Translations under genes and position numbers: made by a program | In this document: in pieces, positions 17,136 to 59,670 of the stretch | Layout: the number at the start of each line of letters is the position of its first letter | How positions within the stretch are numbered: the stretch's first letter is position 1 | NCBI RefSeq assembly: GCF_002854065.1 | Contig: NZ_CP024147.1 | Length of the DNA: 64,000 nt | Reading direction: 5' to 3' (one strand) | Source: Escherichia coli | GTDB lineage: Bacteria > Pseudomonadota > Gammaproteobacteria > Enterobacterales > Enterobacteriaceae | Notes under the pieces: model-generated | The model's input: only the letters and a program-made list of their open reading frames with translations | The model's database searches: none | Told to the model about the DNA's origin: nothing

Positions 17136-17489
17136 ATTGTTCAGTCTCTTATTATCTTTATATGCTTGATATACTTAAGGTTGTAATAAGCAAAAGAGGA
17201 CTGAACTGTAAAATATAGGCGTTATACTTTACAGCAACAGTACGCCGCTAACGCAATTGCTACCTCTGGCATAACAAGTATATCGGGTAAGGGTTTCTGT
17301 TCCGCACACGCAGGCGCAGAGTATCGTTAAGATGTCCATATTGTTGTTTTAATCCCGCTAGTAATGCGCTACGGGTATTTAATATTGTTAAACCCTGATA
17401 ATCGCTCCGGTTATTTCCGGGATAAATGTACTACCGCAGTTACTATCATAGCCCCGACAATAAAACTTGCCGGGGCTTTTTTGACGCTA

Positions 17490-52709: not shown

Positions 52710-53594
52710 ATGTCTCATTTAAAAGACCCGACCACGCAGTATTACACTGGTGAATATCCCAAACAGAAACAACCGACGCCAGGCATCCAGGCGAAGATGA
52801 CACCGGTACCGGATTGCGGCGAGAAAACCTATGTTGGTAGCGGTCGCCTGAAAGATCGTAAAGCCCTGGTGACAGGGGGCGATTCCGGAATCGGTCGCGC
52901 TGCCGCCATCGCTTACGCGCGTGAAGGGGCTGACGTGGCGATCAGTTATCTTCCCGTGGAAGAAGAAGACGCTCAGGATGTGAAAAAGATCATTGAAGAA
53001 TGCGGACGCAAAGCCGTTCTGCTGCCAGGCGATTTAAGCGATGAGAAATTTGCCCGTTCGCTGGTTCACGAAGCGCATAAGGCCTTAGGTGGGCTGGATA
53101 TTATGGCGCTGGTCGCCGGGAAACAGGTTGCCATTCCTGATATTGCAGACCTCACCAGCGAACAGTTTCAAAAGACCTTTGCCATTAACGTTTTCGCGCT
53201 GTTCTGGCTAACCCAGGAAGCGATCCCCCTGCTACCGAAAGGTGCAAGTATTATCACCACTTCGTCAATCCAGGCATACCAGCCAAGCCCGCATTTACTG
53301 GACTATGCGGCTACGAAGGCGGCAATTCTGAACTACAGCCGTGGCCTGGCAAAACAGGTCGCAGAGAAAGGTATTCGGGTGAATATTGTCGCGCCAGGCC
53401 CGATCTGGACAGCACTGCAAATTTCCGGCGGACAAACGCAGGATAAGATCCCGCAGTTTGGTCAGAAAACGCCGATGAAGCGTGCGGGGCAACCGGCGGA
53501 ACTGGCCCCTGTATATGTTTATCTGGCAAGTCAGGAGTCGAGCTACGTCACCGCAGAAGTGCACGGCGTGTGCGGCGGCGAGCATTTAGGTTAA
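52710..53594 (+). CDS. yghA: Short-chain dehydrogenase/reductase YghA, 294 aa
   Basis: [12 protein letters not shown]ossmann motif; full-length ORF. Confidence 0.9.
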
Positions 53595-53639
53595 AAAAAT
53601 ACCCGGTTGTGAAAAGCAACCGGGCATCATTGTGAATTC

Positions 53640-53860
53640 ACTCTTACCTGATGTGGCGAAAACGCCTTATCCACCTACAAACGCATGAAGATTCAACATG
53701 TTGCAATAGATTTTGTAGGACTGATAAGCGTAGCGCATCAGGCATTGAGCACCTAATGCCGGATGCGGCGTGAACGCCTTATCCGGCCTACAAACGCACG
53801 AAGATTCAACATGTTGCAATAGATTTTGTAGGCCTGATGAGCGTAGCGCATCAGGCAATT
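53640..53860. repeat. Tandem BIME/REP cluster (about 100-bp unit present twice)
   Basis: Unit acaaacgca(t/c)gaagattcaacatgttgcaatagattttgtagg(a/c)ctgat(a/g)agcgtagcgcatcaggca repeated at about 53680 and 53790, flanked by REP motif gccggatgcggcgtgaacgccttatccggcctac. Confidence 0.7.
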
Positions 53861-53865
53861 CTACT

Positions 53866-54291
53866 TTACTTCGCTTTGGCAGTTTCTTCGCCAACCAGAC
53901 CTATCTTCAGGTAACCCGCCTGATGCAGCGTATCCATTACCTTCATCAACGTCTCGTAATCGACGGTTTTGTCCGCTCGGAAGAAGATGGTGGTGTCTTT
54001 CTTACCTTCGGTTAACGCATTCAACGCCGTAATCATTGTTTCATCGGTGACCGGATCGTTACCGATAAACATCGAGTTGTCTGCCTTCACCGACAGATAA
54101 ACCGGTTTTTCCGGGCGCGGCTGCGGCGTGCTGGTAGAAGCAGGCAAGTTAACCTTCACATCTACCGTCGCTAACGGTGCCGCCACCATAAAGATAATCA
54201 GCAGAACCAACATCACGTCGATAAACGGCGTCACGTTGATATCATGCATTTCGCCGTTATCATCGAGGTTTTCGTTAAGATGCATTGCCAT
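53866..54291 (-). CDS. exbD: TonB-system energizer component ExbD, 141 aa
   Basis: MAMHLNENLDDNGEMHDINVTPFIDVMLVLLIIFMVAAP... Confidence 0.95.
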   Translation of the reverse strand: MAMHLNENLDDNGEMHDINVTPFIDVMLVLLIIFMVAAPLATVDVKVNLPASTSTPQPRPEKPVYLSVKADNSMFIGNDPVTDETMITALNALTEGKKDTTIFFRADKTVDYETLMKVMDTLHQAGYLKIGLVGEETAKAK

Positions 54292-54297
54292 CGGACA

Positions 54298-55032
54298 TTA
54301 TCCTGCGCGTAATTTTTGTGCGACACGAACCGGATGCGCAGCGGCGCTGGCTTCCAGATCCAGGTCACGGCTTTGCAGCAATAATACCTGCGCTGCAACA
54401 TCACCCAGCATCGCTTTAAAGCCGCCAATCTGACGCGCGAATACGTTATAGATAACGACCGCCGGAATCGCTGCCACCAGACCGATTGCCGTTGCTAACA
54501 GAGCTTCTGCGATACCCGGCGCAACGACTGCCAGGTTAGTAGTCTGCGTTTGCGCGATACCAATAAAGCTGTTCATGATGCCCCAGACCGTACCAAACAG
54601 CCCAACGAACGGCGAAATCGCGCCGATGGTTGCCAGATAGCCGTTACCGCGGCCCATTTGACGACCTACTGCGGCGACCCGACGCTCCAGACGGAAGCTG
54701 GTACGTTCTTTAATACCTTCGTTATCGTCGCTGCCTTCTGACAGTTCCAGCTCATTCTGCGCTTCATTGAGCAAATGCAGGCTTAAGCTTTTGCTACCAA
54801 AATCAGCGGCGATATCGTTGGCCTGGTTTAAGGAACGCGCTTCAGCCAGCAGTTGCTGCTCGCGCTTAAGGCGACGCTTCTGATTGAAGAACTCTACGCT
54901 CTTACTGAAGAAGATTGCCCAGGTGACTACGGAGGCCAAAATAAGCCCAATCATCACACACTTAACGACAATATCGGCGTGCTGATACATACCCCAGACG
55001 GAAAGGTCCGTCTGCATTAAATTATTACCCAC
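54298..55032 (-). CDS. exbB: TonB-system proton channel component ExbB, 244 aa
   Basis: Full-length ORF MGNNLMQTDLSVWGMYQHADIVVKCVMIGLILASVVTWAIFF... Confidence 0.95.
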   Translation of the reverse strand: MGNNLMQTDLSVWGMYQHADIVVKCVMIGLILASVVTWAIFFSKSVEFFNQKRRLKREQQLLAEARSLNQANDIAADFGSKSLSLHLLNEAQNELELSEGSDDNEGIKERTSFRLERRVAAVGRQMGRGNGYLATIGAISPFVGLFGTVWGIMNSFIGIAQTQTTNLAVVAPGIAEALLATAIGLVAAIPAVVIYNVFARQIGGFKAMLGDVAAQVLLLQSRDLDLEASAAAHPVRVAQKLRAG

Positions 55033-59566: not shown

Positions 59567-59670
59567 GCTTTTTACGCCTCAAACTTTCGTTTTCGGGCAT
59601 TTCGTCCAGACTTAAGTTCACAACACCTCACCGGAGCCTGCTCCGGTGAGTTCATATAAAGGAGGAACGT

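Follow-up and report, generated by a model that had tools for sequence, protein, structure and literature searches.

BIME-1 elements consist of y and z1 REPs with a long L linker and are present as a single copy per locus (PMC3333891). BIME-2 elements consist of y and z2 REPs with an S linker and are present in multiple copies, and atypical BIMEs combine motifs of both classes in multi-copy chimeras (PMC3333891). When BIME copies follow one another in tandem at a locus, they are well conserved, and their number differs between strains (PMC3333891). The GTAG/CTAC tetranucleotide at the foot of the hairpin is a hallmark of REPs (PMC3333891).

In Escherichia coli K-12 the spacer between yghA and exbD contains a REP cluster named REP222 (EcoCyc/Rudd nomenclature). 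The name is given in PMC10100675 and in the supplement of preprint 10.64898/2026.03.23.713779. It was taken from these papers, and the K-12 RefSeq record shows only CDS features here. REP222 is described as five REPs, REP222a-d plus REPv222e, and yghA is counted as carrying five (PMC10100675). Of 704 convergent gene pairs, 207 (approximately 30%) have REPs between them, and both members of such pairs tend to be more highly expressed (10.64898/2026.03.23.713779). The REP325/naRNA4 cluster between yjdM and yjdN is outlined in PMC4550694 as six repeats of two palindromic units each. REP325, the model REP cluster, is reported to work in a 3' UTR as a partly Rho-dependent attenuator and mRNA stabiliser, in a strongly context-dependent manner (10.64898/2026.03.23.713779).

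Locus and direct repeat

The window is a 64,000 nt stretch of Escherichia coli DNA (contig NZ_CP024147.1). A 294 aa ORF on the plus strand (52710-53594) and a 141 aa ORF on the minus strand (53866-54291) were named yghA and exbD, respectively, from matching E. coli records. The two genes are convergent, with TAA stop codons at 53592-53594 on the plus strand and 53866-53868 on the minus strand, and the repeat cluster lies in the spacer between these codons. Identity of the 501 bp region was 99.8% to strain CUWW06 and 98.8% to K-12. Open reading frames of 40, 75 and 81 aa crossing the repeats were rejected as artefacts of reading through REP sequence. A search for promoter-like sites found none within the BIME block.

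A repeat search of the window returned a 71 nt pair (53674-53744 and 53787-53857, 96% identity) with a spacing of 113 nt and a 26 nt pair (53647-53672 and 53759-53784, 85% identity) with a spacing of 112 nt. These spacings therefore indicate a single repeat unit with a 1 nt indel. Global alignment of 53647-53744 to 53759-53857 gave 90 identical columns out of 99, with eight substitutions and one indel. Six of the nine differences are between REP1 and REP3, while the L linker accounts for one and the z1 REP for two. Local self-alignment of 53400-54100 scored 71, while 200 mononucleotide shuffles of the same region had a mean score of 8.7 (sd 1.0) and a maximum of 13. Tandem Repeats Finder reported no repeat at the locus, even with a minimum score of 30, probably due to the presence of only about 1.9 periods.

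Anatomy of the cluster

The whole BIME block is 233 nt long (53632-53864). It is bounded by CATCATT at the end of a terminator hairpin and by T followed by TTA of the exbD stop codon, and it is missing from the empty-site allele described below. REPs were typed by comparison with the three reference REP sequences (y, z1 and z2) quoted in PMC11208160.

Unit 1 begins with REP1 (53647-53678, plus strand), a degenerate y-type REP with a local score of 22 of 35 to the y reference. This is followed by an L-like linker of 36 nt (53679-53714, plus strand) and by REP2 (53715-53743, minus strand), which matches the z1 reference at 28 of 29 positions. An S-like head-to-head linker of 13 nt, ATTGAGCACCTAA (53744-53756), joins unit 1 to unit 2. 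Unit 2 is comprised of REP3 (53757-53791, plus strand; 34 of 35 to the y reference), a second 36 nt L-like linker (53792-53827, plus strand) and REP4 (53828-53856, minus strand; 28 of 29 to the z1 reference). The order is y-L-z1-S-like-y-L-z1, with the four REPs in alternating orientation. The GTAG/CTAC tetranucleotide is present in all four, CCTAC ending REP1 and REP3 and GTAGG starting REP2 and REP4.

The L linkers of the two units are identical at 35 of 36 positions. Each contains an IHF-like core, at 53691-53703 in unit 1 and 53804-53816 in unit 2. This core, ATTCAACATGTTG, matches the IHF core WATCAANNNNTTR at 12 of 13 positions, and the canonical L linker of another strain has the same core, ATTCAATATATTG. 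The 13 nt linker ATTGAGCACCTAA resembles AATCGAGCACAATG, the linker (42700-42713) of a BIME-2-like y-S-z2 REP pair located elsewhere in the window at 42669-42745, downstream of a 304 aa plus-strand ORF (41724-42638). Other REPs in the window are a z2/y pair at approximately 1964-2048 and a single y-type REP at approximately 8074-8100 after a T-run.

The predicted hairpins of the two units differ in strength. Energies were -8.0 kcal/mol for REP1 (z -1.5), -6.7 kcal/mol for REP2, -20.9 kcal/mol for REP3 and -15.3 kcal/mol for REP4. Hairpin stability was matched by 15 of 200 shuffles for REP1 and 12 of 200 for REP2, and by none of 200 for either REP3 or REP4. REP2 of the window strain carries GTAGGAC, a mutated form of GTAGGCC, and as a result has a weak hairpin and is an imperfect target for the insertion element IS621. 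The weak unit 1 hairpins of this strain suggest decay rather than selection. The REP4 stem begins 9 nt past the exbD stop codon. RNA structure across the region was strong on both strands (z -6.3 and -5.5).

The preliminary description of this DNA had reported a unit of approximately 100 bp present twice in direct succession at 53640-53860, identified it as a BIME/REP element and proposed a self-comparison of the region. The two copies are borne out by the 90 of 99 identical columns and by a self-alignment score of 71 against a shuffle maximum of 13, so that the direct repeat is significant. The coordinates are essentially correct, comparison with the empty site extending the inserted block to 53632-53864. 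The identity of the element holds, given the near-perfect y match of REP3, the z1 matches of REP2 and REP4, and the dispersal of matching sequence in the genome, where the 501 bp query matched a median of at least 39 places. The REP palindrome assigned to each unit was the part that needed correction. REPs are present in both units, but each unit has two inverted REPs and not one, giving four in total.

Class assignment and relationship to known elements

The composition of each unit is that of BIME-1, with a y REP on the plus strand, a 36 nt L-like linker and a z1 REP on the minus strand. BIME-1 elements are single-copy, whereas this cluster has two tandem units, an arrangement shared by 3,671 of 5,426 complete E. 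coli genomes. No z2-type REP, as expected for BIME-2, was found in the cluster; the sole z2 alignment scored 18 of 37 and overlapped a y REP. The y, z1, L and S-like motifs, the multi-copy arrangement and the occurrence of alleles with two, one and zero units are all features of atypical BIMEs, and no difference from this class was detected. The tandem arrangement thus departs from the single-copy definition of BIME-1, and atypical BIME is the class of best fit.

The cluster shares with BIME-1/RIB/RIP elements the inverted y and z1 REPs around an L-like linker of about 36 nt with the linker core ATTCAANNNNTTG. It differs from them in having two tandem units, and its unit 2 L linker matches a canonical L linker from another locus at only 25 of 36 aligned columns. 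The IHF site is putative, as judged from the sequence. In K-12 nomenclature the prefix RIP marks elements that have an IHF site, and the name given to this one is REP222. The naming suggests that the K-12 curators did not count an IHF site here.

The closest relative is REP222 of K-12, which has the same locus and the same architecture, and the K-12 sequence (extracted locus L001, 4047-4319) aligns along the whole element. The window strain differs from it in having CCACC and not CCGCC in REP1, and GTAGGAC and not GTAGGCC in REP2. Five REPs are counted in the literature while four were typed here, and the fifth, REPv222e, may be the terminator hairpin. The cluster is very probably REP222 itself, consisting of two tandem y-L-z1 units and a short S-like linker that form an atypical BIME beside a bidirectional terminator. 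It is an ordinary intergenic feature of E. coli which was already known under this name.

REP325 is similar to the cluster in having REP pairs with a short linker and a score above threshold with the naRNA4 model. The two differ in that REP325, as outlined in PMC4550694, has six repeats of paired palindromic units while REP222 has two y-L-z1 units. REP325 also lies between tandem genes, while REP222 lies between convergent genes beside a canonical terminator. The Rfam model RF02564 (naRNA4) aligned over its full length (positions 1-77 of 77) to 53718-53788 on the minus strand, and the score of 61.7 bits exceeded the gathering score of 59.5. On the strength of this score the central REP pair could be taken to encode a naRNA4-like, HU-associated, nucleoid-organising noncoding RNA. 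The same model also scored 90.5 bits on the plus strand and 60.4 bits on the minus strand of the unrelated pair at 42669-42745. RF02564 fires on any REP-linker-REP pair and is a generic detector of such pairs, and the match was set aside as uninformative. In addition, a nucleoid-condensing role of naRNA4 has been contradicted (10.64898/2026.03.23.713779). An RNA of this kind encoded at the locus is extremely improbable, and identification of the cluster as REP222 is retained. Other Rfam matches above gathering in the window were the C0719 sRNA (17214-17435, plus strand, 297 bits) and the ES173 sRNA (59569-59632, plus strand, 99 bits).

Local duplication of the unit

A 44 nt query from the unit 2 L linker was found at 6,943 places in 3,765 of the 5,426 genomes, with no more than two places in any genome. 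A 38 nt query across the junction of unit 1 and unit 2 was found at 3,672 places in 3,671 genomes. The L variant and the junction are private to this locus, since the former has at most two copies per genome and the latter occurs once per genome in all but one case. The genome with two junction copies could have a three-unit allele or a duplicated region.

The two units might instead have arisen as independent side-by-side insertions of dispersed BIME-1 elements. REP/BIME sequences are dispersed, as shown by the median of at least 39 matching places per genome, and any two BIMEs are therefore somewhat alike. This general likeness does not extend to the L linker, which is common to both units at 35 of 36 positions and private to the locus across 3,765 genomes, while the identity of the unit 2 linker to a canonical L linker from another locus fell to 25 of 36 aligned columns. 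Conservation of tandem copies at one locus is also what the published survey reported (PMC3333891). Independent insertion is accordingly regarded as highly unlikely. A local tandem duplication, as the preliminary description had it, is upheld by the limit of two L copies per genome and by the single junction in each of the 3,671 genomes except one.

Copy-number alleles and origin

An empty site, in which the terminator hairpin is followed directly by the exbD stop codon, was detected with a 43 nt query in 1,628 of 5,426 genomes, including ST131 strains. The two-unit junction was present in 3,671 genomes and approximately 127 genomes had neither marker. The L variant was found without the junction in approximately 94 genomes, and the one-unit allele would be no more frequent than this. 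The two-unit allele therefore accounts for about 68% of genomes, the one-unit allele for at most 2% and the empty allele for 30%. The expectation that copy number varies between strains was thus confirmed by alleles of two, one and zero units among the 5,426 genomes.

A one-unit allele was seen in strain LAU-OXA (extracted locus L002). Its left side carries the unit 1 diagnostic bases TGTGGCGAAAA and CGCATG, and its right side the unit 2 bases GATGAGCG followed by AATTCTAC. A deletion caused by crossing over or slippage between the two units would leave this pattern of bases. The 13 nt inter-unit linker is missing from this allele, and simple duplication of it consequently cannot yield the two-unit form. 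The most likely routes to a change in copy number would be slippage or recombination involving the two units, or the activity of TnpA_REP, the REP-associated transposase.

A scan of the species-genome collection with the hairpin pattern found the empty site in an outgroup, the unclassified Escherichia strain MOD1-EC7003 of a cryptic clade. The scan returned this one locus only, and the polarity of gain versus loss is based on a single outgroup, which suggests that the block was gained within E. coli. The block is dispensable, as 30% of complete genomes do not have it.

These observations raise the question of whether the block is selfish or neutral non-autonomous mobile DNA in a tolerant intergenic site, with no adaptive role for exbBD or yghA. 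Presence/absence polymorphism, with 1,628 of 5,426 genomes having the empty site, is in keeping with such an origin, as are the empty site of the outgroup and the degraded hairpins of unit 1. The proposal that BIMEs are transposable elements of a non-autonomous kind, with RAYT/TnpA_REP providing their mobility, has also been made (PMC2817692; PMC3333891). Against the absence of any role, strong hairpins will affect RNA decay to some degree once transcribed in a 3' UTR, and REP222-associated transcripts respond to degradosome or ATP perturbation (PMC10100675). A selfish or neutral block is a credible possibility that falls somewhat short of being probable. It concerns the origin of the block and not its identity, and it is compatible with the identification of the cluster as REP222, the explanation preferred here.

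Terminator hairpin beside the cluster

A non-REP intrinsic terminator hairpin is located at 53598-53628 (minus strand). It has a 12-pair stem followed by TTTTTTT, which gives a U7 tail on the exbD-sense strand, and this A7/U7 tract overlaps the yghA stop codon. The predicted energy was -18.5 kcal/mol on the minus strand (z -5.9) and -16.3 kcal/mol on the plus strand (z -5.3). The hairpin was kept in all alleles examined. Position 53601 within its 5' arm is A in the window and G in K-12 and ST131 (TACCCGG compared to TGCCCGG), making the plus-strand stem slightly shorter.

On the plus strand the hairpin is followed by ATCATTTTTATTT in the empty allele and by ATCATTGTGAATT in the filled allele, in which the U-tract is interrupted. 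With the sequence that follows it in the empty allele, the hairpin has the appearance of a compact terminator acting in both directions. A supplement table of 10.64898/2026.03.23.713779, drawn from an earlier genome-wide study, includes the K-12 hairpin (3150546-3150582) among bidirectional terminators, assigning it to exbB:exbD:yghA and to stationary phase. REP222 is 27 nt from the listed terminator (10.64898/2026.03.23.713779).

The preliminary description had considered that the REP hairpins could themselves terminate the exbD and yghA transcripts. Transcription can be attenuated by REPs, in part with the involvement of Rho (PMC2817692; 10.64898/2026.03.23.713779), and 78 REPs lie within mapped bidirectional terminators (10.64898/2026.03.23.713779). 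An intrinsic terminator consists of a GC-rich hairpin and a U-tract, and no U-tract follows any of the four REPs here. Within 53300-54300 the hairpin at 53598-53628 was the single terminator-like site, and it is this non-REP hairpin, 27 nt from REP222, that is listed as the bidirectional terminator. Termination by the REPs themselves is therefore unlikely. With a separate terminator, the REPs occupy the part of the exbBD 3' UTR that precedes it and are likelier to be decay barriers or attenuators than the primary terminator.

IS621 in the cluster

In some strains the yghA-exbD spacer contains IS621, an IS110-family element with a bridge-RNA recombinase. The natural target of IS621 is ATCAGGCCTAC, with the core CT (PMC11208160). 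Insertion occurred between GTAG and GCCTGAT in the z1 REP of unit 1, the equivalent in the window being approximately 53718 in REP2. The element was present in three extracted loci, L003 (1700-3060), L004 (180-1500) and L007 (4374-17519). A locus-specific left-junction query of 53 nt, combining the private L linker and the IS621 end, was at least 80% covered in 192 of 5,426 genomes (3.5%). The right-junction query was unspecific, with 1,139 genomes reaching at least 80% coverage through the IS end and a generic z1 REP, and its count was not used.

The window strain has two perfect IS621 targets in inverted relative orientation. One is at 42738 on the plus strand, in the y-S-z2 pair at 42669-42745, and the other, ATCAGGCCTAC within REP4, is at 53828-53838 on the minus strand. 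In strain ZH49 (extracted locus L007, 3608-18678) the gene order is exbB-exbD-IS621(+)-hybG...yghA-IS621(-)-yghU. Compared to K-12, the stretch of approximately 11 kb running from hybG to yghA is inverted, with an IS621 copy on either side and the two copies in opposite orientation. One copy is in the REP222 cluster and the other is next to yghU, in the REP pair equivalent to 42669-42745 of the window. Strain 120899 has two IS621 junctions approximately 12 kb apart on opposite strands, with the same geometry as in ZH49. IS621 in REP222 thus accompanies an inversion of 11-12 kb in at least two genomes.

In strain 23CRST035 (L004, 183-226) the L linker to the left of IS621 is the canonical RIP-type L, AAAGCACGCAAATTCAATATATTGCAGAGATGGCGTAG, and not the variant of the REP222 locus. 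Among the genomes listed, this L variant lies roughly 100 kb from the exbD position of similarly numbered records. The linker of 23CRST035 would imply a recombinant or gene-converted unit. As DNA, the cluster would act as a substrate for unequal recombination and as a target for IS621.

Transcripts and RNA decay

The transcripts of exbB, exbD and yghA are among those most raised by fluoride-induced ATP depletion, and decay of the yghA mRNA is dependent on RNase E and the degradosome (PMC10100675). Two yghA mRNA species were described, a full-length species of approximately 1,000 nt and an intermediate of approximately 300 nt (PMC10100675). The hairpin and BIME region in the window is approximately 270 nt long and could correspond to the intermediate. 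The size of the full-length species would be consistent with a yghA transcript ending at the hairpin, although the same authors assign five REPs to yghA. Terminal REPs are not generally tied to longer mRNA half-lives and their effects are context-dependent (10.64898/2026.03.23.713779). A role at the 3' ends of the convergent transcripts, as the preliminary description had envisaged, agrees with published work on REP222 (PMC10100675; 10.64898/2026.03.23.713779).

In the mechanism proposed here, the block would have entered between the exbD stop codon and a bidirectional terminator hairpin that was already in place. Transcripts of exbBD would read through the 233 nt block and stop at the U7 hairpin. 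Only the exbD-proximal unit of the window strain has strong REP hairpins, so REP3 and REP4 (-20.9 and -15.3 kcal/mol) are the probable barriers to 3'-to-5' exonucleases. These two hairpins may also attenuate transcription. On the other strand the insertion has weakened the U-tract, probably allowing some yghA transcripts to read into the REPs. Such read-through would fit the description of yghA as REP-containing by the authors of PMC10100675.

REPs less than 16 nt past a stop codon are reported to lower translation of the upstream gene (Liang et al. 2015, as cited in PMC12306157). REP4, at 9 nt from the exbD stop codon, falls inside this range. The empty allele has a strong hairpin 5 nt past the same stop codon, and the insertion may have left a stop-proximal effect unchanged. 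A neutral or selfish origin of the block is fully compatible with the proposed RNA effects, because the element is missing in 30% of genomes and unit 1 looks degraded.

A further proposal is that gain of REP222 split an ancestral bidirectional terminator, and that the polymorphism of two, one and zero units is a natural switch between lineages of exbBD mRNA stability or ExbD output and of yghA read-through. The exbD-sense terminator would then be intact but located 233 nt further downstream, and the yghA-sense U-tract would be weakened. A switch of this kind is speculative and rather improbable. If true, it would affect TonB-dependent iron uptake and colicin or phage sensitivity.

Significance

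The value of this result is chiefly in annotation, REP222 being one of 355 annotated E. coli REP clusters. The locus is also a recurrent natural landing site for IS621. It could provide a natural test case, since its alleles range from zero to two units next to a well-defined terminator and to the exbBD operon, whose product levels matter for TonB-dependent transport.
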